Below are positions 20,301-45,095 of a stretch of DNA of 64,000 nucleotides, one piece after another (the first letter of the stretch is position 1; the number at the start of each line of letters is the position of its first letter). Source of the DNA: Desulfobacteraceae bacterium UBA2174. GTDB lineage: Bacteria > Desulfobacterota > Desulfobacteria > Desulfobacterales > UBA2174. The stretch is taken from positions 7,035 through 71,034 of the forward strand of contig DCWA01000019.1 in NCBI GenBank assembly GCA_002327445.1, written 5' to 3'. The translations under genes and the position numbers were made by a program. Under the pieces are notes generated by a model, which was not told where the DNA came from, searched no databases, and saw nothing but the letters and a program-made list of their open reading frames with translations.

Positions 20301-20305
20301 AAAAA

Positions 20306-20441
20306 AGTTACAAGTGACGAGTGAGCTAAAGTGACTAAAGTGAAGCCGCGCCCCGGGAGGCGGCTCTCTACAAGAAGAAAACAGGCGCGAAGCGCTTCCA
20401 CAACTTTAGCTCACTTTAGGCATTCGACACTTTAGCTCACT
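20306..20441. repeat. Composite intergenic element A: AAAGTGAC/AAAGTGAGCT-type tandem units, unique core, then the inverted units (CTTTAGCTCAC)
   Basis: Left GTGAGCTAAAGTG is the exact complement of right CACTTTAGCTCAC, which is present twice. The core holds small GC hairpins (GCCGC...GCGGC; GCGC-GAA-GCGC). Confidence 0.8.
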
Positions 20442-20472
20442 TTTCTTTCGATTTTTTTAAAAGGAGAATCCC

Positions 20473-22521: not shown

Positions 22522-22684
22522 CAAAGTGCCTAAAGTTACGAGTGCCTACAGTTGCAAGTGCCTAAAGTGACGAGTGACTAAAGTGCCTAAAGTTAAGGAA
22601 TTCTGCCATCTCAAATACAGGGGGGCAGTGCCCCCCTTAACTTTAGGTCCCTTTGGTCCCTGAAGTCCTTTACGTCCTTTTCCC
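22522..22684. repeat. Composite intergenic element B: AAAGTGCCT/AAAGTTACGA units, GC hairpin core, right arm switching to GTCCCTTT-type units
   Basis: CCTAAAGTTAAGG (left) pairs with CCTTAACTTTAGG (right). The core hairpin is GGGGGGC-AGT-GCCCCCC. The right arm reads GGTCCCTTTGGTCCCTGAAGTCCTTTACGTCCTTTT. Confidence 0.8.
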
Positions 22685-22707
22685 AAAAGTTTCACAAGGA
22701 GTTAAAA

Positions 22708-23868
22708 ATGAAAATCCACGAATACCAGGCCAAGGAGCTTTTTGGCCGGTACGATGTCCCCATCCCCGCGGGGCGGGCCGCCTTTTCGGTCGACGAGGCC
22801 GTGGCTGCCGCAGATGCCCTCGGGGGGTATCCGGTGGTCGTCAAGGCCCAGATCCACGCCGGCGGCCGCGGGAAGGGCGGCGGCGTGAAGCTGGCCCGTA
22901 GCGCCGGGGATGTGACGACGGTGGCCGGACAGATCCTCGGCATGACCCTGGTGACCCATCAGACCGGGCCTGAAGGCCGGCTGGTCAAAAAGGTGCTGGT
23001 GGAGCAGGGCCTCGATATCGCCAAGGAGCTGTACCTGAGCCTCCTGCCCGACCGCGGCAGCGCCAAGTACCTCATCATGGCCAGCGAGGCGGGCGGGATG
23101 GACATCGAGAAAGTGGCTGCCGAAACGCCGGAAAAGATCGTCAAGGTATGGGTCGATCCGCTCATCGGGCTCCAGTCCTTTCATGTGCGCGAGGTCGGTT
23201 TCGGCCTGAACCTGCCGCCGGCGGCGATGAAGCCGTTTACCAAGCTGCTGACGAACCTGTTCAGGCTCTTTGTCGAGCTGGATTGCTCCCTGGTGGAAAT
23301 CAACCCCTTGGTGCTTACCGCCGACGACCGGGTCCTGGCCCTGGACGCCAAAATCAACTTCGACGACAACGCCCTCTATCGCCACAAGGACATCCTCGCG
23401 TACCGCGACCTGGACGAGGAAGATCCCCTGGAGGTGGAGGCCTCGGCCCACCACCTCAACTATATCAAACTCGATGGCAACGTGGGCAACATGGTCAACG
23501 GCGCCGGCCTGGCCATGGCGACCATGGACATCATCAAGCGCGCCGGGGCATCGCCGGCCAATTTTCTGGACGTCGGCGGCGGGGCCAGCGCCGAGATGGT
23601 GGAGAACGGTTTCCGCATCATCCTCTCGGACCCCAACGTCAAGGGGATTTTGATCAACATCTTCGGCGGCATCCTGCGCTGCGACGTGCTGGCCCAAGGG
23701 GTGGTGGAAGCCGCCAAGAAGACCAGGGTCAGCGTGCCGGTGGTCGTGCGCATGGAGGGGACCAACGTCGAGGAGGGACGGCGCATCCTGGCCGAATCGG
23801 GACTCGACCTGACCGGTGCGGTGGATCTGAAGGATGCGGCGGCCAAAGTGGCCAGTATTGTGAAGTGA
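22708..23868 (+). CDS. sucC: Succinyl-CoA synthetase beta subunit
   Basis: [20 protein letters not shown]...[19 protein letters not shown]. Confidence 0.95.
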
Positions 23869-24103
23869 CTAAAGTTACGAGTGACTAAAGTTACGAGTGA
23901 CTAAAGTGACTAAAGTTTAAAGTGGCTAAAGTTCTTTTAGGGGAAGGATTCGACGATTCAAATTGCCGGAGCGAAGCGACTCCTGAACTTTAGGCACTTT
24001 AGTTCACTTTAGGCACTTTAGTTCACTTTAGGCACTTTAGGCACTTTAGCTCACTTTAGGCACTTTAGCTCACTTTAGGCACTTTAGTTCATTTTAGACA
24101 CTT
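23863..24103. repeat. Composite intergenic element C (largest): ~7 AAAGTGACT/AAAGTTACGAGTGACT units, core, then ~12 inverted CTTTAGGCA/CTTTAGTTCA/CTTTAGCTCA units
   Basis: Read directly. The left arm starts at the sucC stop codon. The arms are about 90% complementary unit-for-unit: AGTGACTAAAGT vs the reverse complement AGTGCCTAAAGT. Confidence 0.85.
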
Positions 24104-24123
24104 CCTATCCGAAAGGGTTTCGC

Positions 24124-25002
24124 ATGAGCATCTTCGTCAACGCAGACACCCGTGTCCTGGTGCAGGGCATCACCGGGCGCGAGGGGCAATTCCACACCCG
24201 CCAGTGCCTCGCCTATGGCACCCGGGTGGTGGCCGGGGTCACGCCGGGCAAGGGCGGGCAAAAAATGGATGAGGTGCCGGTCTTCGACACCGTGCGTCAG
24301 GCCATGGCCGCCACCGGCGCCAACTGCAGCCTGATCTTCGTTCCGCCGCCCTTTGCCGCCGATGCCATCCTGGAGTCGGCGGAAGCCGGCATATCGGTCA
24401 TCGTGGCCATCACCGAAGGGATTCCGGTGATGGACATGCTGAAGGTCAAAAATTTCATTCAAAACAAGATGCTGCGCCTCATCGGGCCCAACTGCCCGGG
24501 GATCATCACGCCAGGTGCCTGCAAGATCGGCATCATGCCGGCGGCGATCCACAAACCCGGCGGCCCCATCGGGGTCGTTTCCCGTAGCGGGACACTGACC
24601 TACGAGGTAGTTCACCAGCTCACCGGCCAGGGGATCGGTCAGACCACTTGCATCGGCATCGGCGGCGATCCGGTCAACGGGACCAACTTCATCGACTGCC
24701 TCAAGGCGTTCGAAGAAGACCCGGATACCCGGGGCATCGTGATGGTGGGAGAGATCGGCGGTTCAGCCGAGGAAGAGGCCGCGGCCTGGATCGCGGCCAA
24801 TGGGTCCAAGCCGGTGGTGGGGTTCATCGCCGGGCTCACCGCCCCCCCGGGCCGCCGCATGGGCCACGCCGGGGCCATCGTCAGCGGGGGCAGCGGTACC
24901 GCCGAGGGCAAGATCGCTGCCATGCGACAGAGCGGGATCGCGGTCTGCGAGGACCTGGGCACCCTGGGCGAGATGTGCAAGAGGGTGTTTGGCAAAAGCT
25001 GA
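24124..25002 (+). CDS. sucD: Succinyl-CoA synthetase alpha subunit
   Basis: [25 protein letters not shown]...SRSGTLTYE...GIGGDP...GHAGAI. Confidence 0.95.
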
Positions 25003-25490: not shown

Positions 25491-26285
25491 ATGCCGTTTT
25501 CCCTGTTTCGCACCGTCATCCGCCGCCACCATGACCACGGCCGTCCCCATCACCATCCCCACGACCACTCCCATGAGGATCATGAGACGGTGCGTTCCGG
25601 CGCGGGTCGGGAAATCAAGGTAGTGCGCCGGGTCCTGGACGCCAACGACCGGATGGCCCAGGCCAACCGCCGCCTCTTCGCTGCGCACAACATCTTCGTG
25701 CTCAACGTGATGAGTTCCCCCGGATCCGGCAAGACCACCGTTTTGATGCGCACCTTGGGCCAGTTGATGCCCGACCTGCGCTGCGCGGTGATCGTGGGCG
25801 ACATCTGCTCTACCCTGGACGCCGACCGGTTGTCCGTTTCCGGGGCGCCAGTGGTTCAGGTCAACACGGACGAATTCGGCGGCGACTGCCACCTGGCGGC
25901 CCACGTCATCGAACGGGCCGCAGCCGAGCTTCCGCTGGACGATCTCGATGTGCTGATCGTGGAAAACGTGGGGAACCTCGTCTGCCCGGCGGAGTTCGAC
26001 ATCGGCGAGGACCGGCGCGTGGTGATCCTCAGCACCACCGAGGGCGAGGAGAAGCCGATCAAATATCCGCTGATGTTCCGGCTCTGCCAGGCCACGCTGC
26101 TCAACAAGATCGACTTGCTCCCCTACCTGGATTACGACCGCCAGCTGGCGCTCAGGAACATCCGCCAGATCCAACCGGACATGTCCATCTTCGAACTCTC
26201 CGCCAAGACCGGCGAGGGCTTCGATCCCTGGATCGCCTGGCTCAGGTCCCAGATCGCTGCCAAGCGGGGCACCGCCAAGGGTTGA
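25491..26285 (+). CDS. hypB: Hydrogenase maturation GTPase HypB (His-rich N-terminus)
   Basis: HHDHGRPHHHPHDHSHEDHE, P-loop SSPGSGKTT, then ...ENVGNLVCPA... Confidence 0.9.
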   Translation: MPFSLFRTVIRRHHDHGRPHHHPHDHSHEDHETVRSGAGREIKVVRRVLDANDRMAQANRRLFAAHNIFVLNVMSSPGSGKTTVLMRTLGQLMPDLRCAVIVGDICSTLDADRLSVSGAPVVQVNTDEFGGDCHLAAHVIERAAAELPLDDLDVLIVENVGNLVCPAEFDIGEDRRVVILSTTEGEEKPIKYPLMFRLCQATLLNKIDLLPYLDYDRQLALRNIRQIQPDMSIFELSAKTGEGFDPWIAWLRSQIAAKRGTAKG

Positions 26286-27661: not shown

Positions 27662-28846
27662 TCAGGTCACCGGGCAGGCAAGATGGGACGGCCCCTTCCA
27701 GAACGGCGACATCTGACGCAGCCGTTCGATGATCGGCGGCAGCTTTTCTATCACCAGATCGACGTCGGCATCGGTGTTGAACACGCTGAGGCTGAAGCGG
27801 ATCGAGCCGTGGGCCCGGGTAAACGGGACGTTCATGGCGCGCAGCACGTGGCTGGGCTCCAGCGAACCGCTGGTACAGGCCGATCCGGAGGAGGCGCAGA
27901 TGCCGTACCGGTCCATCATGAGCAGGATCGCTTCCCCCTCCACCGCGTCGAAGCCGATGCTAGTGGTGTTGGGCAGGCGGTTGTCCCGGTCGCCGTTGAC
28001 ATAGGTATCCGGCACCCGTGCGAGCAGTTCGCTCTCCAGTCGGTCCCGCAGCCCCTTGACGCGGGTGTTTTCCTCTTCCATCCGTTCGGCCACGAACTTC
28101 GCTGCCCGGCCCAGACCCACGATGTTGGCGGTGTTTTCGGTGCCGGCACGCCTGCCGTGCTCCTGGTGGCCGCCGTGCAAAAAAGGTGAAAAAGGGGTTT
28201 TATCGCGTACATAGAGCGCGCCGATCCCCTTGGGCCCGTGAAGTTTATGCCCCGAGAGCGACAGCATGTGGATGCGGCTGCGGCTCATGTCGATGGGCAC
28301 CTTGCCCACGGCCTGCACCGCATCGGTGTGAAACAGCACCCCGCGTTCGTGGCAAAGGGCGGCGAGCTCTTCCACGGGAAATATCGTTCCGGTTTCGTTG
28401 TTGGCCCACATGAAACTGGCGACGGCGGTGTCTTCGCTGAGGTGCTTCTTGAAGTATTCCATGTCCAGGCGGCCATCGGCATCCACCGGAACGAAGGTGA
28501 CCCGGTAGCCGTTTTGCGCCAGCCATTCGGCCAGGTTCTTCACGGCCGGGTGCTCCACCCGACTGGTGAGGAGATGACGGCGTTCAGGGCGGGTGCGCAG
28601 GGCCGACCAGATCGCCGTGCTGTCGCTTTCGGTGCCGCAACTCGTAAAGACGATCTCACCCGGCTTGGCCCCGAGGAGTTCGGCGAGATTGGCGCGCGCC
28701 TGGCGCAAGTCGGCGGCCACATCGCCGCCAAAAGCATGCATGCTCGATGGGTTGCCGTAGCGTTCACCGAAGTAGGGGAGCATGGCCTCGATCACTTCGG
28801 GCGCTACACGGGTGGTGGCGTTGTTGTCCAGATAGATCGGGTTCAT
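27662..28846 (-). CDS. nifS: Cysteine desulfurase NifS
   Basis: MNPIYLDNNATTRV...SLSGHKLHGPKGIGALY (PLP-Lys), ...SSGSACTSG (active Cys). ATG at 28846. The 501-aa track ORF is over-extended. Confidence 0.9.
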   Translation of the reverse strand: MNPIYLDNNATTRVAPEVIEAMLPYFGERYGNPSSMHAFGGDVAADLRQARANLAELLGAKPGEIVFTSCGTESDSTAIWSALRTRPERRHLLTSRVEHPAVKNLAEWLAQNGYRVTFVPVDADGRLDMEYFKKHLSEDTAVASFMWANNETGTIFPVEELAALCHERGVLFHTDAVQAVGKVPIDMSRSRIHMLSLSGHKLHGPKGIGALYVRDKTPFSPFLHGGHQEHGRRAGTENTANIVGLGRAAKFVAERMEEENTRVKGLRDRLESELLARVPDTYVNGDRDNRLPNTTSIGFDAVEGEAILLMMDRYGICASSGSACTSGSLEPSHVLRAMNVPFTRAHGSIRFSLSVFNTDADVDLVIEKLPPIIERLRQMSPFWKGPSHLACPVT

Positions 28847-29670
28847 GAAGGTACCTCCTCCACCACCAGTTCCGGGGTGACCGTCTCGCGCAGGCGAGCT
28901 TCGACGAAGTCTTTCAAAGTCGCCTGGCTCAGCTTGCAGGTGGCGCAGGCACCGCGCAGCTTGATCAGCACCTGGTTGCCGTCCACGTCCACCAGCTGGA
29001 TGTCCCCCCCGTCCTTCTTGAGCGCCGGCCGGATCTCGGTTTCCAGGGTTTCCTCGATGCGCCGGATTTTTTGAATGTTGGTCATGGCCGGCGGCTTTTT
29101 TACCGGCTCGGGCAACCCGAGGGTCTCCCAGATGATCTCCTGGATCTTTTCGTGGCAGTTGCCGCATGCCCCGCCGGCCTTCAGGTAGTCGGTAACATCT
29201 TCAATGGTCTTGAGCTTGTGCTCGGCCACCGCCTCGCGAATCTGAACGTCGGTGACCCCGAAGCACTCGCATACCACCTGCCCCTCTGCCTTGCGGTCCG
29301 GCTCGCCCAGGTAGCAGGATATGGCCTTTTCCAGTGCGTCGCGGCCCATCACCGAGCAGTGCATCTTTTCCTTTGGCAGGCCGCCAAGGTACTCGGCGAT
29401 GTGGTCGTTGGTGATCTGGCGCGCCTCCTCCAAGGTCTTTCCCTTGACCATCTCGGTCAGGGCCGAGGACGAGGCGATGGCGCTGGCGCAGCCGAAGGTC
29501 TGGAACTTGGCGTCCTGGATACGTTGATGATCATCGAGTTTGAGATATAAGGTCAAGGCATCGCCGCAGGCCAGCGAACCGACTTCGCCGACGGCATCCG
29601 CATCTTCCATCTTGCCCACGTTGCGTGGATTGAGAAAATGGTCTTTGACTTTATCGGTATAGTCCCACAT
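28843..29670 (-). CDS. nifU: NifU Fe-S cluster scaffold (three-domain)
   Basis: MWDYTDKVKDHFLNPRNVG..GSLACGDA...FGCASAIASSS..., central CECF...GGACGNC, C-terminal NifU domain GACATC. Confidence 0.9.
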   Translation of the reverse strand: MWDYTDKVKDHFLNPRNVGKMEDADAVGEVGSLACGDALTLYLKLDDHQRIQDAKFQTFGCASAIASSSALTEMVKGKTLEEARQITNDHIAEYLGGLPKEKMHCSVMGRDALEKAISCYLGEPDRKAEGQVVCECFGVTDVQIREAVAEHKLKTIEDVTDYLKAGGACGNCHEKIQEIIWETLGLPEPVKKPPAMTNIQKIRRIEETLETEIRPALKKDGGDIQLVDVDGNQVLIKLRGACATCKLSQATLKDFVEARLRETVTPELVVEEVPS

Positions 29671-32533: not shown

Positions 32534-34372
32534 TCAATCTGGCGGGCGGTGTTGCGGCTGCTGCCACAGCTTTTCCGCCAGGCCGGAGGCCCGCTCGGCG
32601 CTGCGGGCCGCCGCCTTGCGGATCAAACCAACGGGGCCGCGGATTTCGATATGCCGCCGGGCGCGGGTGGCGGCGGTGTAGAGCAGCTCCCGGGAGAGGA
32701 CCTGCACGTCGTGATCGGGCAGCAGCAGCAGGACCCGGTCGAATTCCGACCCCTGGGCCTTGTGCACGGTAATGGCAAAGGCGGTTTCGTGCGCCGGCAG
32801 ACGGCCGGGGGAGATTTTTTTCAATTCGCCGTCCGCCTGCCGGAACCAGGCGCGCAGCACACCGTCGGCCGGGTCGGGCCAGAGAATGCCGATGTCGCCG
32901 TTGAATACGCCAAGCTGATAGTCGTTACGGCTGACCAGGATCGGCCGCCCCTGGTACATGCCGCCTGGTTCCACCGCCAGCCCGGCCGCTTTTAGCCCCA
33001 TTTCGATGCGGCGGTTGGTTTCCACCACGCCGGCGGCACCTTCGCGGGTGGCGCAGAGAATGGCGAAATCTTCCAGGCAGGCCAGGGCGCGGGCGGGATC
33101 GACGGCCTTGAAGATGGCGCCAAAGGCGCTGATGGCTGCCTCCGGCGTTTTCATCGGGGCGGCCGGGTCCGGGGCGACATGGGTCACATCCCCCATGCCG
33201 GCCTCGAAAACCGGCATCGGGTCGGCGCCGGCGCGCACGGCACGGGCCAGGGCGCCGATGCCGCTGCGGGAACCGAAACGGTAGCTTCTTTCCAGGAGCG
33301 CCAGGCAGTCCCCCAGGGCGGTGGCCGCCGGATCCGCCGGGCCGTCGTAGGCGGCGCAGCGCTTCAGCAGGGCGCACAGGGCCGGGCTGTATCCGCGGCC
33401 GGGTTTGGCGCACAGGTCCGCGAAGACGTTGCCGGCTTCCACCGAGGCAAGCTGGTCCTTGTCGCCGAGCAGGATGAGCCGGGCGTGGTCCGGCAGGGCG
33501 GCCACGGTCCGGCTCATCAGGGGCAGATCGATCATGGACGCCTCGTCGATCACCAGCAGGTCCAGGTGCAGCGGGTGGTCCGGCCCATGACCGGGGTTGG
33601 CCCGGCCCGGTCGAACCCGGATCAACCGGTGAAGGGTCATGGCTTCGGTGGGGATGGCCGCCCGGACTTCGGCGGTTACCGGCAGTCCCTCCCGGGCCTT
33701 GCGAATGGATTCGGTGAGGCGGGCCGCGGCCTTGCCGGTGGGGGCCGCCAGCACCATCCGCGGAAAAGGCGGCCCGGCCAACTCGGCGATAAGCGCCAGG
33801 ATGACCGCCACGGTGTGGGTCTTGCCCGTGCCGGGGCCGCCGGAGACGATGCACAGGCGGCGCAGGGCCGCCAGGGCCGCGGCGGTTTTCTGGTCGTCGG
33901 ATTCTCCTGCTGCGATGGCTGCCGGGAACAGGCGATTCAGCGCCGCTTCGAGCCGGCCGATGTCCACGGGCACCGGGGCCGACGCCAGCCGGTGCAGCGC
34001 ATCGGCCAGGGTCTTCTCGAAATGCCAGTAGCGGGCGAGGTAGAGCCGGGTTCCGTCGAGGACAAGGAGGCGGTCGGGCCTCTCCGGAGTCCCCACGGCG
34101 GCGGAGGCGCGCAGGGCATCGATCCAGGGCTTCAGATCCGGGGCTGGCAGACCGTCTTCGGCCTCCGGGGTGGCAAAGAGCCGCTGGCCGGCGAAACGGG
34201 ACAGTTCCACACACACGTCGCCTTCCCCGAGCCGCTGGCTGGCCAGGGCCGCGGCCAGGGTCGGCGGCCCGGCGGCATCTCCGGAAAGCACCCCGATCCA
34301 CCGGGCGAAATGCCGGTCCAGGTCCCGCAGGGTGTTGAGGGATTGCATCGCTTCCAGCATGCCAGTGGTCAT
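32534..34372 (-). CDS. recD: Exodeoxyribonuclease V alpha subunit RecD
   Basis: ATG at 34372 overlaps the recB stop (ATGA). ...CIVSGGPGTGKTHTV (Walker A), LLVIDEASMID, ...AITVHKAQGSEF. Confidence 0.9.
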   Translation of the reverse strand: MTTGMLEAMQSLNTLRDLDRHFARWIGVLSGDAAGPPTLAAALASQRLGEGDVCVELSRFAGQRLFATPEAEDGLPAPDLKPWIDALRASAAVGTPERPDRLLVLDGTRLYLARYWHFEKTLADALHRLASAPVPVDIGRLEAALNRLFPAAIAAGESDDQKTAAALAALRRLCIVSGGPGTGKTHTVAVILALIAELAGPPFPRMVLAAPTGKAAARLTESIRKAREGLPVTAEVRAAIPTEAMTLHRLIRVRPGRANPGHGPDHPLHLDLLVIDEASMIDLPLMSRTVAALPDHARLILLGDKDQLASVEAGNVFADLCAKPGRGYSPALCALLKRCAAYDGPADPAATALGDCLALLERSYRFGSRSGIGALARAVRAGADPMPVFEAGMGDVTHVAPDPAAPMKTPEAAISAFGAIFKAVDPARALACLEDFAILCATREGAAGVVETNRRIEMGLKAAGLAVEPGGMYQGRPILVSRNDYQLGVFNGDIGILWPDPADGVLRAWFRQADGELKKISPGRLPAHETAFAITVHKAQGSEFDRVLLLLPDHDVQVLSRELLYTAATRARRHIEIRGPVGLIRKAAARSAERASGLAEKLWQQPQHRPPD

Positions 34373-37300
34373 CGCCGATCCCCGGGTTCGGTATTGCCGG
34401 CGAACATCCGGTCCAGGGCCTCTACCAGGGCCGGCTCCGGCCGGTGGGAAAAAACGCCCCGAGACGGCCCGTGGTCCGGGTGCATGCCGCGGAGAAACAG
34501 ATAGTACACCCCGCCGAAGTGGTCCGAGTAGCGGTAGCCGGGCAGGCGGCAGGCCAGGTAGCGGTGCAAGGCCACGGTGTACAACAGGTACTGCAGGTCG
34601 TAGCGGTGAGCGGCCATGGCCTCCCCGATTTGCCGCGGGCCATAGTCCTGGAGGTGGTCGCCCAGGTGGTTGGACTTGTAATCGGCGATGTAGTAGCGGC
34701 CCCGGTGGCGGAAGACCAGATCGATGAAGCCTTTCATCAGACCCTTCACCGGGTCGAAGTGCAGCCCTTGTCCCGCGCTGCGATGACCGGCGAAATCCGC
34801 CAGGACGCCGGCCAGGCGGGTCGGCTCCAGGCGGGCCAGGGGGAAGTGGAATTCCATCTCGTCGAGCCGGTCGGGGCGGCAGATGGCGCGCAGGCGCAAT
34901 CCATCGGCGTCCAGGGGGGTGTCCAGGGTTCGGCGCACGATTTCCGCGGCAACCGGCTGCCAGCCGTCGCCGATGGCATGGCGGGCCAGTTGTCGCTGGA
35001 CGGCTTCGGCCAGGGCCGGCCCTTCGGCGGTGGGGAAATCGATGTTTTCCAGCAGTTCGTGGAGGCACTGGCCTGCCACGGTGCCGCGGGGAAACCGAAA
35101 GACGGCGTCCACTGGCGCGGAGGGGGTCTCGGCTGTCTCTGGCGATGGTTCGGGATCATGGTCCGGTCGCTCCACGTCCCTGCCGGCCAGCAGGCCCGAG
35201 TAGCTGGTCAACCGCCAGTCGCCGGCGATACGGCCGGTAAACGGCCGCGCGGCATAGTTTTTTTCGTCCTGGGACGGCAGTCCGATTTCGGGTGCGGGTT
35301 CCTCTGGCGCGGGTTTGACCTGGATGGCACCGCCGGCCCCGGCGGCCAGCGTCTCCAAGCGCGCCCGGATCTCCTCCTCGGCCAGATCTCTCATGAGGCT
35401 TCGGGGCGGGTCTTGTCCGGAGTCCGGGTGCAGGAGCCAGGCCAGGGCCGAGTGCTCGGCGTTGTTGATGCGGCCCCAGGTGAGGACGCACAGGTGCCGG
35501 GCCCGGGTCACGGCGACGTAGAGCAGCCGCAGCCGTTCGGCCAGGTCTTCGGCGGCGGCCATTGCCTGGTGGGCCTCGATGCGGTCGGAGCCCAGGTCCA
35601 GGATCACCGGGTAAGGGGGTTCCGGGGCATGGAACACCACCGGGCCGCGGCCCGCCATGCCGCCTGCCCAGGGAAAGGGGATGAAGACCACCGGGTATTC
35701 CAACCCCTTGCTCTTGTGGATGGTCACGATCTGCACCAGGGCTTCGTCGCTTTCCAGGCGCAGCAGCCGCTCATCGTCGGCGCCGGGGTCGCAGCGCTGG
35801 TCGGCCAGCCAGCGCAGGAGCCGCTGGGGTCCGGTGAACTGCCGGGAGGCGGCCTGGAGCAGCTCTCCCAGGTGCAGCAGGTTGGTCAGCCGCCGTTCGC
35901 CGTCCGGATCCGTCTGGCATCGCTCCAGGATTTTCTCGCCTTCGATGAGCGCGAAAAAGGCCCGCTGGAACCCGCGATGCAGCCAGAGGTCCCGGTAGGC
36001 GTGGAACCGGCTGAGGACCGCTTCCCGCGGCTGCATTTGGTCATCGAGGGCCAGGATCTCCTCGGCGGGCCATACGAGCAGCGCACTGGCCAAGGCGGCT
36101 TTGAAACGGCCCTCGTTGCCGGGGTCGCTCACCGCCATGAGCACCTGCTGGAGGGCTTCGGCCTCAGGGGTATCGAAGACGCTTTGCTGGCTGAGACTGA
36201 CGCTGGCAATTCCCCTCTCGCGCAGGGCGCGCTGCATCCAGAGGCCGTCACTGTGGCTGCGGACCAGCACCGCGATGTCGCCGGCTTGCAGAGGAACATC
36301 TCCCAGCACGGCCCGCCCCCGGGCCGACAGAGCCAGCAGGCGGGCGATCTGGGTGGCGCAGACGGCGGCGGCCGCCTCCCGGGCGGCATCGGCGGTGATG
36401 GCGCCGTTTCGTGTCAGGGTCCGTCCCCGGGTTTCGAGAAACCAGAAGGACAGCGGCGTCGGGACCTGACCGGCGAGTTTCAGCGGCCGGTCGTCGGCGC
36501 GGGGGCCGGCGCTCACCGGGAGAAAAGGGATGTGTCGATCGTAGACAAACGGCCGCTGGGCAGCGGAAAAGAGGTGGTTTACCGCCGCCACCAGGCGGGT
36601 GGCCGAACGCCAGTTGGTGCCCAGGGTAAAGCAGCGTCGGGCGCCGGCGTCGTTCTTGGCCTGCATGTAGGTGAAAATGTCGGCGCCGCGGAAGCTGTAG
36701 ATCGCCTGTTTGGGATCGCCGATGAGGAAAAGCCCGGATTGGTCGCACTGGCGATAGATTTGTTGAAATATTCGGTACTGCAGCGGATCGGTGTCCTGGA
36801 ACTCGTCGATGAGGGCCGCGGGGAATCGTTCCCGGATGACGGCGGCCAGGGAGGGGCCTCCGTCGCCGGACAGCGCCTCGTCCACCAGCCGGAGCAGGTC
36901 GTCGAAACTCAGCACCTGCCGCTGCCGCTTGCGCTGGACCATCTCGGCGGCCAGGAACTCCCGTGCCGCGGCCAGCAGCGTGACCCTGCGCGCTTTCAAC
37001 GTCATCTCGAATGTCTTGGCAAAAGCGGCGCAGCGGTCGAAAAAGGCGTGTGCCGGGACGGCTTCACCCGGCTTGGTCTGCGCTTTTAACTGGTCCGGGG
37101 TAAAGCGGGCCAGTTCGGCCGGCAGGGCCAGCGGCAGGTCTCCGGCGAGCAATTCGTCCATCGCGGCCACCGCTCGTCCCACCACCGGCTTGCTGTACGA
37201 ACGGCGGTTGAGCCCGCCACTGTTTTCCAGGATCTTCACTACTGCTTCACGATCCGTGGCCCACGCGGTTTTCAGACTCTCGAAAACCCCGGCCAGGGCG

Positions 37301-37935
37301 GCGAAATCATCCGAGTGGGCCATGTCGGCCGGGTCGGGCAGAATTCGGATGCGGTCGTCCCGGACCATTGGCCCCAATGCCTGGAGCAGATCGAGGGGGG
37401 TGCGCCATTGGCGTCTGAGCCAGCGGGCTTCCGCAACGGAAAGGGATTCGGCCTGCCGGCGCCAGAAGTCGGCGATCACCGTGCGGCGCAGTTCGCTTTC
37501 GTCGGTGACGAACTCGGACTCGAAGGGGACCCGGCTTTCGAAGGCGTTTTCCCGCAGTGTGCGCTGGCAAAAGGAGTGGATGGTGTACACGGCCGCCTCG
37601 TCGAGACGGGTCAGGATGTCGGCGAGATGACGCCGGGCCGTCAGGTGGTCCGGCAGGCGGGCGAAGATGGCGGCCAGCGTTTCGTCGGCGGCATCGGCGT
37701 CATCCAAGGCGGCGATGGCCTCGGCGATGCGTCGGCGAATGCGCCCCCGCAACTCCTCGGTGGCCGCATTGGTGAAGGTGACGACCAGGATGCGGTCCAC
37801 ATCGAGATCGGCCTCCAGGAGCAGGCGGAGGTAGAGCGTCACTAGGGTATGGGTTTTTCCCGTGCCGGCACTGGCTTCGATCAGGGTGAGGCCCCGCAGC
37901 GGCAACTGCAGCGGATCCAGGCGCGCGGGGCTCAT
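34369..37935 (-). CDS. recB: Exodeoxyribonuclease V beta subunit RecB
   Basis: 1188 aa. ...LIEASAGTGKTHTL..VVTFTNAATEELR is the UvrD-like helicase region. The C-terminal nuclease region reads ...GFIDLVFRHRGRYYIADYKSN. Confidence 0.9.
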   Translation of the reverse strand: MSPARLDPLQLPLRGLTLIEASAGTGKTHTLVTLYLRLLLEADLDVDRILVVTFTNAATEELRGRIRRRIAEAIAALDDADAADETLAAIFARLPDHLTARRHLADILTRLDEAAVYTIHSFCQRTLRENAFESRVPFESEFVTDESELRRTVIADFWRRQAESLSVAEARWLRRQWRTPLDLLQALGPMVRDDRIRILPDPADMAHSDDFAALAGVFESLKTAWATDREAVVKILENSGGLNRRSYSKPVVGRAVAAMDELLAGDLPLALPAELARFTPDQLKAQTKPGEAVPAHAFFDRCAAFAKTFEMTLKARRVTLLAAAREFLAAEMVQRKRQRQVLSFDDLLRLVDEALSGDGGPSLAAVIRERFPAALIDEFQDTDPLQYRIFQQIYRQCDQSGLFLIGDPKQAIYSFRGADIFTYMQAKNDAGARRCFTLGTNWRSATRLVAAVNHLFSAAQRPFVYDRHIPFLPVSAGPRADDRPLKLAGQVPTPLSFWFLETRGRTLTRNGAITADAAREAAAAVCATQIARLLALSARGRAVLGDVPLQAGDIAVLVRSHSDGLWMQRALRERGIASVSLSQQSVFDTPEAEALQQVLMAVSDPGNEGRFKAALASALLVWPAEEILALDDQMQPREAVLSRFHAYRDLWLHRGFQRAFFALIEGEKILERCQTDPDGERRLTNLLHLGELLQAASRQFTGPQRLLRWLADQRCDPGADDERLLRLESDEALVQIVTIHKSKGLEYPVVFIPFPWAGGMAGRGPVVFHAPEPPYPVILDLGSDRIEAHQAMAAAEDLAERLRLLYVAVTRARHLCVLTWGRINNAEHSALAWLLHPDSGQDPPRSLMRDLAEEEIRARLETLAAGAGGAIQVKPAPEEPAPEIGLPSQDEKNYAARPFTGRIAGDWRLTSYSGLLAGRDVERPDHDPEPSPETAETPSAPVDAVFRFPRGTVAGQCLHELLENIDFPTAEGPALAEAVQRQLARHAIGDGWQPVAAEIVRRTLDTPLDADGLRLRAICRPDRLDEMEFHFPLARLEPTRLAGVLADFAGHRSAGQGLHFDPVKGLMKGFIDLVFRHRGRYYIADYKSNHLGDHLQDYGPRQIGEAMAAHRYDLQYLLYTVALHRYLACRLPGYRYSDHFGGVYYLFLRGMHPDHGPSRGVFSHRPEPALVEALDRMFAGNTEPGDRR

Positions 37936-40900
37936 GTCAACGGCTCCTCTTCGGCGGCGTTCATCAAGGGTTCAAAAACAAGGACGGCCGTTTGTCGAAA
38001 TGGCTCCTGCAAGGGATCCTGACCGCGCCAGGCGAGCTGGACCGCCGGGTCGAAAGCGTCGCCGCGGGCGTTGTAGTCATCCCGCCAAACCCGGCGGCAG
38101 GCCGCAAGGGCCTTGTCCGGGTTGCCGCTTCGATTCCACGCTTCGACATAGGCCCTGGATGTTTCGGGGAAAAACGGCAGCGGGGCCGAATGTCCCGCGC
38201 GCCAGAGCACCAACAGTTCCTGGAGAATCTCCAAGGGGTTGGCCACCGGCGCCAGTCGAAGCACCCTGTCGGCGGCGATGTGCAGGCTCGTCGCCGGCCG
38301 GGTGCCGGCTGTGGCGGCGCACAGGGCCAGGTGCTGGAGCCAGAGCTGCAACCGGTCCCTGGCTTTCAGCGCCGCCGGGCGAAAGGCCATCCGACCGCTT
38401 TCGGTGAGCCCGCCGAGCCACCCGCGCAGGATGACGTCTCCCACGACGAGGTCCAGTTCCAGCGGCGCCACCGGCTGGCGTGCCGCGTCCTGAACCCGCT
38501 GCACAACCAGATCCATGCCTTCCAGCATCTCTTCCCATGCCGCTTCTCCCGGGGCGGCATGGGGCAGTTGGCCCCGGGCGCGCAGCTTGCGCCTCACCTC
38601 TTCGATCCGGTGGCCTTCCAGCATCTCGGCCACCAGCGTGTCCCGAGCCCCGTAGCGCTCCAGCCCGGCGATATCGAAGGGTTCCTCGTCTGGAGGTGGG
38701 CCTTGGTCCGCCATCAACTGGATGCCGAGCCGCTGCTGGAGAAACCAGCGGGCCGGGTGGCTGAAAAAACGCACCAGATCCGAGATGTCCACTACCGGCT
38801 CCCGGTCCGCGGGGACCGGCAACGGCTGCGCCGCGAAGGGGCGGGGCCCTGACGCCCGAAGGTTCGGCGCGGCCCGGCACCAGCGGGAATCGTAGGAAAA
38901 CAGGTCAGGGTGCCGGCCGTCGAAGAGGCGGAGGCTGAAGGGCTGCAAGGGATGGCGCCGGACCAGGCGATCGGATGGCATCTTGCTGCCAGGCAGCCGC
39001 CAGCTCCCGTCGACGTAGGCCATCAGCTCGCTGACCACCACCGACGGCTCCCGGGGGCTGTTGTCCCGCACGTCGTTGCCTAAGTAGCTGACATAAAAGA
39101 CGTCGCGGGCCGAAAGGAGGGCTTCGAGAAACAGGTACCGGTCGTCCAGGCGCCGGGACCGGTCGCCGGGCCGCGGATGGCGGGCGATGAGATCGAAGCC
39201 GGGCGGCTGCTGGCGGCGGGGAAAATCCGTGTCGTTGAGCCCCAGGAGGCAAACCACCCGGAAGGGAATGGCGCGCATGGGAACCATGTTGCAGAAGGTC
39301 ACGCCGCCGAGGAGGAAGCGACGTGCTCCGCCGGCGGTGGCGAGATGCCCTTCCAGGTGGGCGCGGATCACCCGGGCTTCCAGGCAGGTTTCCAGGCCGG
39401 CCTGGCCGGCTGCCTGCCCCAGTCTGTCCGCGGCCCGCCGCAGGGCCTGGAGGCTTTCGGCCTCATCCGGATCCGGCGCCAGGAAATCATCGACCAGATC
39501 GTTGATCCGCTGAAGCCAGTGCCCGGCGGAGGCCGGTGCCTTGAGCACGGCGCGCCAGCGGGCCAGCCGGTCCACCAGGGTCTGCAACATCCCCAGATCG
39601 CTGGCCTCGCTTCCTTCCACATCCGGGTAGCTCAGGGTGTCCCCGTAGAAGACCTCCTCCGGAGGCATGGCGTAGCCGAGGAACAGGCGGGCAAGGCCGG
39701 CCTGCCAGGTGTTGGCCGGTTCGGCGGGCAGGCCCAGGGTGGCGCGCATGGCACCGTCCAGTCCCCAGCGAATCCCGGATTCCTCCACCCAGGTGCGGAT
39801 GCGCGCCAGCCCGTCGGCATTCAGAGAAAAGCGCCGGGACACCGCCGGCACTTCCAGCAGACCCAGCACTTCCGAGACGCTGAGGCGCATCTCGGGCAGA
39901 TCCAGCAGGCCCAGAACGGTTTCCACCACCGGTTCCCGGGCGGTGAGGCGCCGGTCGGCCATGCTCCAGGGAATGGAGCGTTCCCGGGGCGCCGCGTCAA
40001 AGACCGCTTCCACATGGGGGGCATAGATGTCGATATCCGGCGCCATGACCACGACCTGGCGGGGATGCAGGTTCGGAAGCGTCTCGAAGAGCGCCAGAAG
40101 GCGGTCGTGGAGGACTTGCACCTCGCGCATGGGAGTGTGGCAGGCATGGATCTGCACGGAAGGATCATCGGGGGCGAGGGCGGCCGGCCGTTTGTCGCCA
40201 CGCCGGTCCTCCAGGTACAGCAGATCGTGCTGAAGGCAGGCCAGCAGGCTTGCTTCGCCGGGATCGGCGAAGGCGTCCCGGTCCCGGGCGCCGATTTCCA
40301 GCAGTTGATCGAGAAAGCCTTGGCCGGTGTGGCCGAAGGCGGCCAACAGCGGATTGCCCACGTCGAGGAGGCCGCTGAAGTCATCGCTCCCGCTGCGCCG
40401 CCATAGCGCCCGCCGCCGAGCCTGGCCCCGGTCGTCGACGATGTCGGCCCAGTACTCGGCGCTGGGATTGAGCAGGAACAGGTGCACCGGGCGGTGGCGC
40501 GACAGGATGTCCAAGGCGTGCAGGTGCACCGGCGCCAGTGCGGTGAGCCCGAAGAGGCTCACCCGCTCTGGCAAGGCGCCGGACGGGGGGTTGCCCTGAC
40601 CGGCGGCCTGGCGAAAGGCGTCAAAGATGGCGGCCCGGTGCATGCCGCCGACGCTGCCCACCACCGTTCGCCACAGGATGGCCTGCCAATGGTCTTCCCG
40701 GCCGGCCTCCCAGTCCAGCATCATGTCCGGCCGATAAACGAGGTACTGATCGAAGACGTCGGCGATGCGCCCGGCGAGCTGATAGGCCTTGAGGCCGTCG
40801 GCGTCTTCTTGCAGGTAGCGTTTTAATTCGGCAAAGGCCGGTTGGGGCAGGAGGGGGGGCAGCAGCGCCAAAATTCGCCAGTGGAGGGCTTCCCGGTCGT

Positions 40901-41153
40901 AGCGGGTTTGATCCGGCATCTCCGACAGCCATGCGCTGTAAACGCGCCAGACGAAGGTAGCGGGCAGCGGAAAGTCCAGGTTGGCGGCAATCCCCGTTTC
41001 CAGCGCCAGTTGCTGGGCCAGCCAGCGGGCCATGCCCGGGTTCTGGACCACCACCGTCTCCGGCGCCATGGGGTCGGCCAACGGTTGCCGCGTCATGTCC
41101 ACAAACCGCTCCAGCAGGAGCTCGGTGCGGTTGCTGTGGTGGATATGGATCAT
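37932..41153 (-). CDS. recC: Exodeoxyribonuclease V gamma subunit RecC
   Basis: 1073 aa. MIHIHHSNRTELLLERFV... is a typical RecC N-terminus. ATGA-coupled to recB. Confidence 0.9.
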   Translation of the reverse strand: MIHIHHSNRTELLLERFVDMTRQPLADPMAPETVVVQNPGMARWLAQQLALETGIAANLDFPLPATFVWRVYSAWLSEMPDQTRYDREALHWRILALLPPLLPQPAFAELKRYLQEDADGLKAYQLAGRIADVFDQYLVYRPDMMLDWEAGREDHWQAILWRTVVGSVGGMHRAAIFDAFRQAAGQGNPPSGALPERVSLFGLTALAPVHLHALDILSRHRPVHLFLLNPSAEYWADIVDDRGQARRRALWRRSGSDDFSGLLDVGNPLLAAFGHTGQGFLDQLLEIGARDRDAFADPGEASLLACLQHDLLYLEDRRGDKRPAALAPDDPSVQIHACHTPMREVQVLHDRLLALFETLPNLHPRQVVVMAPDIDIYAPHVEAVFDAAPRERSIPWSMADRRLTAREPVVETVLGLLDLPEMRLSVSEVLGLLEVPAVSRRFSLNADGLARIRTWVEESGIRWGLDGAMRATLGLPAEPANTWQAGLARLFLGYAMPPEEVFYGDTLSYPDVEGSEASDLGMLQTLVDRLARWRAVLKAPASAGHWLQRINDLVDDFLAPDPDEAESLQALRRAADRLGQAAGQAGLETCLEARVIRAHLEGHLATAGGARRFLLGGVTFCNMVPMRAIPFRVVCLLGLNDTDFPRRQQPPGFDLIARHPRPGDRSRRLDDRYLFLEALLSARDVFYVSYLGNDVRDNSPREPSVVVSELMAYVDGSWRLPGSKMPSDRLVRRHPLQPFSLRLFDGRHPDLFSYDSRWCRAAPNLRASGPRPFAAQPLPVPADREPVVDISDLVRFFSHPARWFLQQRLGIQLMADQGPPPDEEPFDIAGLERYGARDTLVAEMLEGHRIEEVRRKLRARGQLPHAAPGEAAWEEMLEGMDLVVQRVQDAARQPVAPLELDLVVGDVILRGWLGGLTESGRMAFRPAALKARDRLQLWLQHLALCAATAGTRPATSLHIAADRVLRLAPVANPLEILQELLVLWRAGHSAPLPFFPETSRAYVEAWNRSGNPDKALAACRRVWRDDYNARGDAFDPAVQLAWRGQDPLQEPFRQTAVLVFEPLMNAAEEEPLT

Positions 41154-41612: not shown

Positions 41613-41939
41613 ATGCTGTTGACGACGCAAGATGAATTCGCCGACTACCAGATCGTCCAGACGCTGGGACCGGTGAAGGGCAATACCATCCGGGCGCGGC
41701 ATATCGGCAAGGATATCCTGGCCAGTTTGCGCAACCTGGTTGGCGGCGAGGTCCATGAATACACCAAGATGTTGGCCGAATCCCGCGAGCAGGCCCTCGA
41801 CCGGATGGTGTCGCAGGCCAGGATCCTCAACGCCGACGGGATCGTTTGCCTTCGATTCACCACGGCCAGCGTGATGCAGGGAGCGGCGGAGCTGCTGGCC
41901 TACGGCACCGCCGTCAAGCTTCAGCCGAAAAAACCGTAG
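41613..41939 (+). CDS. YbjQ/UPF0145-family protein
   Basis: MLLTTQDEFADYQIVQTLGPVKGNTIRARHIGKDILASLRNLVGGEV.EY..M...R. Confidence 0.8.
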   Translation: MLLTTQDEFADYQIVQTLGPVKGNTIRARHIGKDILASLRNLVGGEVHEYTKMLAESREQALDRMVSQARILNADGIVCLRFTTASVMQGAAELLAYGTAVKLQPKKP

Positions 41940-42400: not shown

Positions 42401-43525
42401 ATGCCAGTCATGTTCCCGTTAATTGAAAAGGCACCGGCGGCGGCCGGCCAAACCGCCATCGACCCTGAGGCACTGGAGAAAAAACGCCTTGCGCAGATTG
42501 TGCTCCTGTTCGGCGGGGTGGCGGTTTTTATTCTGCTCACCATCTCGGCGGTCAATTATGTCCGGCATTCCGGGGCATTCATCTGGATGACGGTGCCGGC
42601 GGCGGCGGTCCTCCTGGCCCTGGTTTTCTTTACACAACGCACCGGCAATATCTCGCTGGCGATCAACGCATTTGGCGTCATGATGGTCGCCTTGAGCCTG
42701 ATTCTGCTCGTCTCCGGCGGCATCAACGGGTATGGGCTGCTGTGGATCTACATTTTTCCGCCCTTTATCTTTTATGCGCAGGGATTTCGGCGCGGCCTGT
42801 TCTACATGGCCCTTCTCATTGCCTGCGTCCTGGCGGTCTTCTACGGTCAGTATTGGCCCATCGACCATTTTCGTTACAGTCCCGATTATAAAAAGCGCTT
42901 CCTGCTCTCGTTGTCCGGCGTGGTGATGATTTCCGCCATCTCCGAATACAGCCGCCAGAAAACCCACCGATGGCTGGCGACGTTGGCGGCAAAGCTGGAG
43001 GCGCTCTCCTACCAGGACGAACTCACCGGGCTGGCCAATCGGCGTTGCGGCCTTAGCCAACTCTCGACGCTCCGGGAGATTTCCTTGCGCAACGAAACCC
43101 CGTTTTCCCTCATCGTTGTGGATATCGATCACTTCAAGCAAATCAATGATCATTACGGGCATGAAGCCGGGGATGCCATGCTCCGGCACTGCGCCGACAC
43201 CATGCGCCAGGGGATTCGTAAGCAGGACTTGCTCGTGCGCTGGGGCGGTGAGGAGTTTCTGTGCCTGCTGCCCAACACCGACCTGGACGGTGCTTTCGTC
43301 GTGGCCGAAAAGATGCGCAACAATCTGGAGAAGGCCCAGTTGGTCGCGGGCAGCCGGGTATTGAGAGCCACCGGCAGCTTCGGGGTCGCCCGGGTCGGGA
43401 AAGAGGAATCCCTCGACGCAACCTTGGCCCGGGCCGATGAGGCATTGTACCGGTCCAAGGAGGAAGGTCGCAACCGTGTTTCCGTGGCCGACAATTTCCA
43501 ACCGCCCAAAGGAAAGGCCGCCTGA
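42401..43525 (+). CDS. Membrane-anchored diguanylate cyclase (GGDEF)
   Basis: About 6 N-terminal TM helices, then ...DELTGLANRR...DIDHFKQINDHYGHEAGD...RWGGEEFLCLL. Confidence 0.85.
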   Translation: MPVMFPLIEKAPAAAGQTAIDPEALEKKRLAQIVLLFGGVAVFILLTISAVNYVRHSGAFIWMTVPAAAVLLALVFFTQRTGNISLAINAFGVMMVALSLILLVSGGINGYGLLWIYIFPPFIFYAQGFRRGLFYMALLIACVLAVFYGQYWPIDHFRYSPDYKKRFLLSLSGVVMISAISEYSRQKTHRWLATLAAKLEALSYQDELTGLANRRCGLSQLSTLREISLRNETPFSLIVVDIDHFKQINDHYGHEAGDAMLRHCADTMRQGIRKQDLLVRWGGEEFLCLLPNTDLDGAFVVAEKMRNNLEKAQLVAGSRVLRATGSFGVARVGKEESLDATLARADEALYRSKEEGRNRVSVADNFQPPKGKAA

Positions 43526-44685
43526 TGCGCTTGAAAGACAAGTACGCCATCGTCGGGGTGGGGTACACCCCCCAAGGTAAAGTGCCGGAGCGCACCACCT
43601 TGAGTTTCCATCTGGAAGCCTGCGCCAACGCCATCGCCGATGCCGGGCTGAAGCCCCACGACGTGGACGGCCTCATCGTCTATCGCCACTTTTCAGGCCC
43701 CACCGGCGAGCGGGACCTCACCCCCTACCTGTTGGCCCAGCACCTTGGCATTGCGCCAACCTACGCTTATCAGGACGCCAACTGATCGCGCAGCCACCTC
43801 CAGCACGCCGTGAGCGCGCTTGAATCCGGCCTCTGCCGATATGTGTTGCTGTCTTACGCCCATTCGGGAGACAGTATGCTGCGGGTGCTCGACGAGATCA
43901 GCGGCGATGAGGCTCCCTTCGGGTTGTTCGGCGCCGCCGGCGGATACGCCCTGGCCGCCCGGCGGGCCATGCACGAATTTCGCACCGGCCCCGATACCTG
44001 GAAGCACATCGCGGTGGGCCAGCGCAAATGGGCCCGCCTCAATCCACGGGCGATCCTTCGCGACCGCCCGTTGACCCTGGAAGATTACGAAAATGCCCCC
44101 TTCCTCGTCGAACCGTTTCGACTGCCCGACAACTGCCTGGTCAACGACGGAGGGCGGGCCTGCGTCCTGACCTCCCTGGAACGCGCCCGTGACCTGAAGC
44201 ATCCGCCGGTGACCATCATGGGTCTCGGGCAGCACAACCCGTCGGGCGACCTTTACCAACCGGGCCATCTCACCGGGCCCACCGGTGCCAAGGTGGCTTT
44301 CCAGCAAGCCCTGGGCATGGCGGGAATCACGCGATCGGAGATCGATGCCTGCCAAATTTACGACTGTTTTACCTACACCGTTGAAATAACACTCCAGGAT
44401 TACGGTTTCTTCGAACCCGGCGGAGGGGCGGAATGGCTTGCCGGGGGCACCATCGAGCCCGGGGGCCGAATACCGGTGAACACTTCGGGAGGGCAATTGG
44501 CCGAGGCCTATCACATGGGGCTGACGCCGCTCACCGAGGCCGTGATGCAGCTCATGGGCCGTTGCGGGGCGCGCCAGCTCGGACCGGAAACCGGCACCCG
44601 GAAGCCCGAGGTGATTCTGTGCAGCGACAACGGCGGCGTCTTGCAAACCCATTCTTGCTGTATTTTAAGGAGGTGGACGCCATGA
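43525..44685 (+). CDS. SCP-x/DUF35-associated thiolase-like protein with in-frame TGA (43783-43785) at the nucleophile-Cys position: Sec candidate or nonsense pseudogene
   Basis: Track ORFs 43525-43785 and 43810-44685 share one frame. Read-through gives ...AYQDAN-TGA-SRSHLQHAVSALESGLCRYVLL..., and a C-terminal ...VNTSGGQLAEAYHMG... ATGA-coupled to the DUF35 gene. Confidence 0.6.
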
Positions 44686-45095
44686 CGGCCCCAGCCAAAC
44701 CGGCGCCGCGGCTCAATGCCGACTCCCGGCCTTTCTGGGAAGCGTGCCGATCCCATCGGCTCCAGGTTCAGCAATGCACCGCCTGCGGATTGGCGCGCTG
44801 GCCGCCCGCGTTTCTCTGCCCCCGGTGTCATGGGAAAGAGGCTCAGTGGCGAGACTGTTCCGGCAGGGGGCGGGTGTACAGCTACGTGGTGTATCACAAG
44901 GCGTTCCATCCGGCCTTCAAGACGGATGTGCCTTACGTGGTGGCCATTGTGACCCTGGCGGAGGGCCCCTGCCTGGTGAGCAACATCGTCGGATGCGATC
45001 CGTCCGAGGTTTATTGCGAGATGCCTGTCGAGGTGACGTGGGCGGATCGGCCGGCCGGATTCTCGCTGCCGTTGTTCAAGCCGTCCAATATGTAG
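44682..45095 (+). CDS. DUF35 OB-fold/zinc-ribbon protein (thiolase partner)
   Basis: ...FWEACRSHRLQVQQCTACGLARWPPAFLCPRCHG...GRVYSYVV.. AGGAGG RBS upstream of the ATG at 44682. Confidence 0.8.
   Translation: MTAPAKPAPRLNADSRPFWEACRSHRLQVQQCTACGLARWPPAFLCPRCHGKEAQWRDCSGRGRVYSYVVYHKAFHPAFKTDVPYVVAIVTLAEGPCLVSNIVGCDPSEVYCEMPVEVTWADRPAGFSLPLFKPSNM

Follow-up and report, generated by a model that had tools for sequence, protein, structure and literature searches.

Most of the prokaryotic selenoproteins characterised so far combine a thioredoxin-like fold and a redox motif, as noted in a 2026 review. In bacterial genes that exist in both selenocysteine (Sec) and cysteine versions, such as FdhA/fdhF, UGA occupies the position of a catalytic Cys, a hairpin with an exposed GU lies within the open reading frame (ORF), and Sec and Cys interchange frequently along the tree. 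We describe here a gene that shares these traits. It lies at positions 43525-44685 of a 64,000-nt stretch of contig DCWA01000019.1 from Desulfobacteraceae bacterium UBA2174 (hereafter the window). FdhA/fdhF are redox enzymes, whereas the host protein is in this case a thiolase-fold enzyme acting, as far as can be predicted, on acyl-coenzyme A (acyl-CoA) substrates. Judging from comparison with its homologs, the gene is very probably an intact selenoprotein gene, in which the UGA is read as selenocysteine. There is strong support for the prediction that its product is a thiolase-fold enzyme with a Sec nucleophile and a DUF35 partner.

An in-frame TGA at the nucleophile position

Re-translation confirmed the coordinates of the initial annotation: an ORF of 86 codons ending with the TGA (43525-43785) and a second ORF beginning with GTG (43810-44685) share the same frame and are separated by eight sense codons, SRSHLQHA. 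Read-through gives the proposed product of 386 residues (...AYQDAN-[TGA]-SRSHLQHAVSALESGLCRYVLL...), of which residues 243-383 match Pfam Thiolase_C_1 (E = 5e-37). The overlap with a DUF35 gene was also borne out: the thiolase stop codon (TGA 44683-44685) and the ATG at 44682 form an ATGA, and the 137-residue product of the second gene is recognised by Pfam (zf-ChsH2 and OB_ChsH2_C). A DUF35 gene was found immediately 3' of the thiolase gene in 118 of the 119 loci whose sequence extends far enough; for the Sec forms, the figure is 107 of 108. Public gene calls divide the thiolase gene into an 86-aa ORF and a second ORF of either 291 aa (GTG start) or 269 aa (ATG start); the larger fragment bears the JGI label 'acetyl-CoA acetyltransferase'. 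The 291-aa fragment of the window itself has no record as a called gene. Among the 32 Pfam-supported genes of the window, the TGA of the thiolase gene is the sole internal stop. These 32 genes terminate with TGA (21), TAG (6) or TAA (5); since 21 of them use TGA as a stop, this codon is not reassigned genome-wide.

The distribution of the TGA was determined in three ways. A protein search returned, amid full-length Cys homologs, 291-residue 'fragments' with 93% (P0005) and 88% (P0038) identity, and the ten contigs of those relatives (L001-L010) show the same 86-codon ORF, TGA and downstream ORF. A scan of metagenome contigs with the degenerate pattern D/E-A-N-TGA-S/A-R-x-H/Q-L gave at least 120 loci, among which were at least about 50 full homologs (49 distinct sequences) with 65-77% identity and the TGA in frame. 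The scan of one genome per GTDB species gave 205 relatives; the codon was read in the best 80 and was TGA in 68, TGC in 6 and TGT in 6, i.e. the predicted Sec form is commoner than the Cys form in the closest Desulfobacterota homologs sampled. The total comes to at least 127 loci with the TGA, representing 102 distinct genes, and 12 genes with a Cys codon.

The carriers are Desulfobacterota (Syntrophales, Desulfobacterales, Desulfatiglandales, Smithella, Desulfatitalea) and include an isolate, D. alkaliphila M08but (Desulfatitalea). The nearest carrier to the window among the best 80 of the 205 species-level genomes is a Desulfobacteraceae metagenome-assembled genome (MAG), at 93% identity. 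Groups of this type have been described as Sec-rich or as Sec users (PMC1794560; PMC5109826), which agrees with what had initially been said of the Desulfobacterota; the Dehalococcoidales homologs have a Cys codon in three cases out of three. On a neighbour-joining tree of 232 sequences, at least 18 switches between Sec and Cys were counted. Two MAGs, JAFDAS01 (L132 and L135) and JAGGSD01 (L173 and L208), hold two TGA copies each, and therefore the Sec form can occur as paralogs in one genome.

The identity of the residue replaced is clear: all 130 Cys-type homologs have Cys in the TGA column. In a PDB search with a profile built from 31 Cys homologs, this column aligned with the Cys of the EAACASG motif in 7yvy (Pyrococcus furiosus thiolase) and 6esq (Methanothermococcus acetoacetyl-CoA thiolase). 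We take the Cys of 6esq to be the nucleophile Cys85. In an AlphaFold model of a Cys homolog 72% identical to the window protein (pLDDT 82), the equivalent of residue 87 sits between strand 81-86 and helix 92-101. The TGA had initially been placed at the nucleophile Cys, a placement which the invariant column and the alignment with 7yvy and 6esq uphold. The alignment of orthologs that had been called for gave a column holding TGA or Cys codons only and, in the TGA forms, a conserved hairpin downstream.

The downstream hairpin and the decoding of the UGA

The initial annotation had mentioned only a weak stem (43787-43791/43814-43818) without a GU-containing loop. The hairpin actually conserved is a different one, with arms at 43802-43808 and 43814-43820 and a CGUGA loop that does contain GU. 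The consensus in TGA genes is AGCACGC-NGUNG-GCGYGCU; AGUUG, GGUCG and CGUGG are found as loop variants in relatives, and the GU is invariant. The GGUC variant is the loop of E. coli fdhF. Over 92 distinct TGA sequences, 90% of the stem cells are paired. The loop-closing pair flanking the GU is A-U in 74, G-C in 11 and C-G in 5 of them, with 16 double changes; its covariation score was reached by none of 500 shuffles and drops at every partner offset except +2. RNAalifold recovered five of the eight pairs and missed the A-U/A.C position, the outermost A-U and the loop-closing pair.

Because the hairpin lies within coding sequence, synonymous variation provides the sharpest test. Among 130 four-fold-degenerate columns, the lowest third-position entropies in the TGA forms are those of codons 97, 98, 96 and 95 (Gly97 is GGC in 93 of 93 and Ala98 is GCG in 52 of 52, compared with a median entropy of 1.69 bits over the four-fold columns); among 113 two-fold columns, the lowest are those of codons 94 and 93. 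The 12 Cys-codon genes, on the other hand, vary at these codons (third base of Gly97: C5/T3/A2; Fisher p = 3e-6). The effect extends to the amino acids. Residue 96 is Val in 102 of 102 Sec forms as against I53/L48/V25 in the Cys forms (Val in 25 of 130; p = 3e-42), and residue 94 is His in 100 of 102 Sec forms as against H82/N42 in the 130 Cys forms (p = 3e-12). The GUN codon of Val96 supplies the GU of the loop and is fixed in the Sec forms; the RNA therefore constrains the protein too.

The hairpin was then compared with the published criteria for a bacterial selenocysteine insertion sequence, or SECIS (PMC13188914 Fig. 2): an apical loop of 3-9 nt, an upper stem of 4-16 bp, a G at loop position 1 or 2, as a rule with G or U after it, pairable flanking loop bases, 16-37 nt from the UGA to the loop and a minimum free energy (MFE) of -7.5 kcal/mol or lower. 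In the window, the loop has 5 nt and the stem 7 positions, loop position 2 is a G with a U next to it, 23 nt separate the UGA from base 43809, where the loop begins, and the MFE is -11.7 kcal/mol over the 48 nt from the UGA (-8.7 over 34 nt). An MFE of -7.5 kcal/mol or lower was obtained for 114 of 115 TGA genes. For the 19-nt core, the median MFE is -8.0 kcal/mol in the Sec forms versus -2.85 in the Cys forms, which with three exceptions do not fold. These three Cys forms with TGC or TGT (L133, L140 and L198) keep the hairpin sequence, with MFE values from -5.0 to -10.8 kcal/mol; they are probably recent Sec-to-Cys switches with a fossil SECIS. There is strong support, from these comparisons, for regarding the hairpin as a bacterial SECIS selected specifically in the Sec forms. 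The suggestion made at the outset of a candidate selenocysteine thiolase is supported by the Cys column, by the nucleophile alignment and by this putative SECIS, specific to the TGA forms.

We propose that the UGA at 43783-43785 would be decoded as selenocysteine during translation. The hairpin, 17-35 nt past it, would act as the SECIS, and its exposed G-U (43810-43811) would recruit SelB carrying Sec-tRNA(Sec). Several observations weigh against this proposal. The stem of the window has six pairs and one A.C mismatch (43805/43817), and the bare 19-nt core reaches only -6.5 kcal/mol. The 86 nt around the site (43775-43860) are no more stable than shuffled sequences (z = -0.09). The folding check suggested initially was thus null for these 86 nt, whereas the 48 nt from the UGA are more stable than the SECIS cut-off demands. 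Given the null obtained by folding a single sequence, the SECIS signal is seen only through comparative analysis. No Rfam match was found, either in the whole window at gathering thresholds or in 43700-43900 at E <= 10; this was expected and is uninformative, since each gene family has bacterial SECIS sequences of its own. Finally, selA, selB, selD and the gene for tRNA-Sec were not found within the 64-kb window (Pfam scans of about 50 ORFs; no tRNA gene).

This last point favours programmed read-through without selenocysteine, an explanation in which the hairpin promotes near-cognate decoding and Trp, Cys or Arg is inserted at the UGA. That hairpins located downstream are able to stimulate read-through in other systems also counts for it. 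It is nevertheless very improbable, for the hairpin has features of the SelB type (invariant GU, small loop, covarying closing pair, spacing within 16-37 nt), only Cys codons alternate with the UGA, at a catalytic Cys, which is the selenoprotein pattern, and the TGA is carried by Sec-rich lineages, with Cys in the Dehalococcoidales homologs. Very improbable, too, is a split gene, where residues 1-86 would associate with a product re-initiated at GTG 43810 into a nucleophile-less enzyme. The window does have this GTG eight codons past the TGA, but the GTG start of the public 291-aa calls is the Val96 codon of the putative SECIS loop, and codon 96 is GTT or GTC, which are not start codons, in 93 of the 102 TGA genes. 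Moreover, the eight codons in between (SRSHLQHA) show the same conservation as those of the Cys homologs, the stop is TGA every time and never TAA or TAG, and the only other codons in its column are those for Cys.

That a mutation of TGC or TGT to TGA killed the gene, leaving an 86-residue fragment or no product at all, is hardly credible, even though one base change would suffice and public gene callers all split the gene. The TGA is retained throughout the loci enumerated above, and the selected hairpin is found in the TGA forms. The three lineages represented by the window and its 93% and 88% relatives differ from one another at 135-160 nucleotides, and show neither indels nor further stops. 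Synonymous divergence (dS) is 0.47-0.67, and the ratio of non-synonymous to synonymous divergence (dN/dS, Nei-Gojobori as for dS) amounts to 0.03-0.08 over codons 1-86 and to 0.08-0.15 over codons 96-386. The low dN/dS on both sides of the TGA indicates that both halves are translated and under purifying selection. The very fresh nonsense pseudogene envisaged in the initial annotation is ruled out by this selection, by the at least 127 TGA loci and by the identical assemblies described next. A sequencing or assembly error, also raised initially, has a negligible chance, and nothing was found in its favour: the exact sequence of the window's DUF35 protein is present on 12 public contigs, and all five of these that were compared (L213-L217, independent assemblies of different samples) match the 1161 nt of the thiolase gene without a single difference, TGA included; the same codon occurs in more than 100 relatives.

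The predicted enzyme and its surroundings

The nearest solved structure is that of a putative thiolase of Sphaerobacter (4u4e; 38% identity, E = 9e-68), followed by Ltp2-ChsH2(DUF35) (6ok1; 31% identity) and Sal-Shy(DUF35) (9myr; 30% identity). Archaeal thiolases, PhlC, BbsB and SCP2 thiolases are further structure matches, and Foldseek, run with the model of the 72%-identical homolog, gave TM-scores of about 0.8 to thiolases and aldolases. NCBIfam returned sub-threshold matches only, the best being PRK06158 (256 bits versus a cut-off of 421). With hhalign, the alignment to the classical thiolase of the window was limited to the C-terminal domain, with YDCF opposite NEAF and a probability of 5%. 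Homology shows the predicted protein to have the thiolase fold and to belong to the DUF35-associated SCP-x/Ltp2-like branch. It had first been called an SCP-x-type thiolase: the fold and the DUF35 partner stand, but it is not a textbook SCP-x, since Tyr replaces the catalytic His and YDCF replaces HDCF.

The active-site residues point in two directions. Like thiolases, the protein has a candidate acid/base Cys, in a YDCF motif that aligns with the HDCF of 6esq. It does not have their catalytic His: Tyr329 stands opposite the GHP or GHA His of 7yvy and 6esq, and the next residue, His330 in the window, is mostly Phe in the homologs. The nucleophile column holds Gly, Ala and Ser in 4u4e, 6ok1 and 9myr, respectively, and the motif Cys is absent in Ltp2 and 4u4e but present in Sal as the catalytic Cys304. 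The catalytic Tyr and second acid of the Ltp2/Sal retro-aldolases are found here, whereas the lack of a nucleophilic Cys that goes with them is not. The replacement of the thiolase catalytic His by Tyr, and the fact that the closest solved relatives, Ltp2 and Sal, are retro-aldolases without a nucleophile, both speak against thiolase chemistry. On the other hand the family, unlike the aldolases, holds both cysteines, from which we infer a covalent catalysis of the thiolase type. A retro-aldol or mixed activity of the Sec family is possible.

In the mechanism that we infer, passing through an acyl-selenoester, Sec87 would be located at the strand-to-helix elbow where thiolases hold their nucleophilic Cys. 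Its selenolate would attack the thioester or the 3-oxo carbonyl of an acyl-CoA, giving an acyl-selenoester intermediate. Cys281 of YDCF would act as acid/base on the enolate, and Tyr279 and Tyr329 would stand in for the His residues with which ordinary thiolases polarise the substrate and the nucleophile. The low pKa of the selenol might compensate for the replacement by Tyr of the His that activates Cys. The DUF35 protein, with its zinc ribbon and OB fold, would bind as a structural subunit, as in BbsAB, archaeal thiolase/HMG-CoA synthase, Ltp2-ChsH2 and PhlABC.

The gene pair is flanked by a GGDEF gene and by genes for a 2-hydroxyacid dehydrogenase, a FadB-like protein and a classical thiolase. 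The FadB-like and classical thiolase genes downstream are specific to the window's lineage; no conserved neighbour beyond DUF35 was found across the loci compared, and gene context gives no clue to function. The stop codon of the GGDEF gene (42401-43525) overlaps the ATG of the thiolase gene as TGATG. No other selenoprotein gene was seen in the window, where TGA-joined ORF pairs are swamped by chance ORFs (62% GC). Read-through of 3674-4384 and 5505-6644 as further selenoproteins was considered and rejected, as it yields nonsense sequence. The product of the gene at 5505-6482 (+) belongs to the C_GCAxxG_C_C family; its leader is twin-arginine-like, and its C-terminal part contains two CxxCH motifs (CNSCH and CLQCH). 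In some organisms, proteins of this family are selenoproteins; the gene of the window stops at an ordinary TGA beyond which the sequence is nonsense.

The coordinates are collected in Table 1, together with those of a complete methylmalonyl-CoA pathway cluster (15235-25002, + strand), typical of propionate metabolism in Desulfobacterota. The methylmalonyl-CoA mutase is identical, as a protein, to that of contig DHHP01000050.1 (L212) of the public MAG assembly GCA_002403345.1, which is probably from the same species. Elsewhere in the window, 2797-3255 and 4133-4384 (+) both encode an N-terminal segment of a nucleotidyltransferase-like (MNT-type) protein and are almost duplicates of each other; the second one looks truncated. 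A CobW/HypB-type GTPase is encoded at 25491-26285 (+). The class-V aminotransferase at 27662-29167 (-), with a match to Pfam Aminotran_5 only, is taken to be of the NifS/cysteine desulfurase/selenocysteine lyase type. A RecB-like UvrD/PD-(D/E)XK helicase-nuclease (1188 aa) and RecC (1073 aa) occupy 34369-41153 (-), and are followed by YbjQ (41613-41939) and the GGDEF gene.

Table 1. Position of the thiolase-fold gene, its putative SECIS and key residues, and of the methylmalonyl-CoA cluster, in the window
Feature	Position	Strand	Description	Basis
Thiolase-fold gene	43525-44685	+	1161 nt, 386 codons, predicted Sec at codon 87	Translation, Pfam
In-frame UGA	43783-43785	+	At thiolase nucleophile position	Homolog alignment
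Sec/Cys87			Counterpart: thiolase nucleophile Cys	PDB profile alignment
Tyr279-Asp-Cys281-Phe			Invariant; counterparts: HDCF (SCP2, archaeal thiolases), YDHF (Ltp2), YDCY (Sal), YDCF (TbSLP)	
Tyr329			Invariant; counterparts: His of thiolase GHP, Ltp2 catalytic acid Tyr344	
Putative SECIS core	43802-43820	+		Comparative analysis, folding
Putative SECIS 5' arm	43802-43808	+	AGCACGC	
Putative SECIS apical loop	43809-43813	+	CGUGA, GU at 43810-43811	
Putative SECIS 3' arm	43814-43820	+	GCGCGCU	
Lower-stem extensions	43799-43800/43822-43823; 43793-43795/43828-43830	+	Weak, predicted	
DUF35 partner	44682-45095	+	C4 zinc ribbon and OB fold	Pfam zf-ChsH2, OB_ChsH2_C
Methylmalonyl-CoA mutase	15235-17367	+		
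MeaB	17429-18430	+		
Carboxyltransferase 12S	18487-20040	+		
5S/biotin carrier subunit	20473-22521	+		
Succinyl-CoA synthetase beta	22708-23868	+		
Succinyl-CoA synthetase alpha	24124-25002	+		

Novelty and comparison with known systems

Thiolase, acetyl-CoA acetyltransferase and PF22691 are absent from the May 2026 catalogue of 119 prokaryotic selenoprotein families and subfamilies, in agreement with the initial remark that thiolase is not an accepted selenoprotein family. A search of the open-access full-text literature for selenocysteine or selenoprotein together with thiolase gave nothing relevant, and a selenothiolase is mentioned neither in an earlier review nor in the deep-Sep, Olavius symbiont, ISME 2016, Genome Biology 2006 and marine Deltaproteobacteria papers, nor in Haft's preprint. 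The recoding mechanism appears to be the standard bacterial one and the host family to be new: the putative selenothiolase is likely to be both a thiolase-fold enzyme in a new selenium form and a new selenoprotein family. On balance, we favour the view that it represents an unrecognised and widespread selenoenzyme family, the first in the thiolase superfamily to use Sec as its acyl-carrying nucleophile, with an acyl-selenoester and C-C chemistry on CoA thioesters.

If this is true, selenium enters covalent acyl-transfer and C-C bond chemistry through the Sec nucleophile of a thiolase-fold enzyme, and the natural Sec/Cys pair, with its at least 18 interconversions, makes it possible to ask what selenium brings to such a reaction. 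The gene is systematically mis-annotated, as fragments or as a pseudogene, in syntrophic and sulfate-reducing Desulfobacterota. As a consequence, metabolic reconstructions omit a conserved enzyme and selenium demand is underestimated. The putative SECIS, AGCACGC-NGUNG-GCGYGCU at 23 nt past the UGA, provides gene finders with a search model.

Among selenoproteins, a parallel for a non-redox role is a predicted amidotransferase of the catalogue, in which Sec apparently replaces a Cys that forms a covalent acyl-enzyme; its fold and reaction are unrelated to those of the window protein and involve no C-C bond chemistry. The acyl-enzyme reading of this amidotransferase rests on the usual mechanism of amidotransferases. 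Selenium has reportedly been seen in a thiolase, that of Clostridium kluyveri, in work of 1982 ascribed to Hartmanis and Stadtman; it is said to have been present as non-specifically incorporated selenomethionine, and not as a UGA-encoded active-site Sec. A search of the open-access literature for this selenomethionine thiolase found nothing.

Among thiolases, the archaeal enzyme of the thiolase/HMG-CoA synthase/DUF35 complex (6esq, 6et9) and that of P. furiosus (7yvy) have the same fold and a DUF35 partner. The Cys of EAACASG in 6esq and 7yvy corresponds to Sec87 of the window, and that of HDCF to Cys281. Identity is, however, only about 22-26%, the His residues of HDCF and GHP are Tyr279 and Tyr329 in the window, and the HMG-CoA synthase gene of the archaeal complex is not adjacent there. 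The benzoylsuccinyl-CoA thiolase BbsAB (7pxp) is likewise a two-gene module of anaerobes made of a thiolase and a DUF35 zinc-ribbon protein, and matches structurally. Its NCBIfam models are weak on the window (BbsB, 56 bits versus a cut-off of 750; BbsA, 31 versus 250), which does not have the context of a bbs operon.

The steroid side-chain retro-aldolases Ltp2-ChsH2 (6ok1) and Sal-Shy (9myr) also have a DUF35 partner, as in the window. Tyr294, His296 and Tyr344 of Ltp2 correspond to Tyr279, Cys281 and Tyr329, and Tyr302 and Cys304 of Sal (YDCY) to the YDCF motif; the catalytic roles of the Ltp2 and Sal residues are those given in PMC12329534. The difference lies at the nucleophile position, where these aldolases have Ala, Gly or Ser and are incapable of thiolysis, whereas the family of the window has an invariant Cys or Sec.

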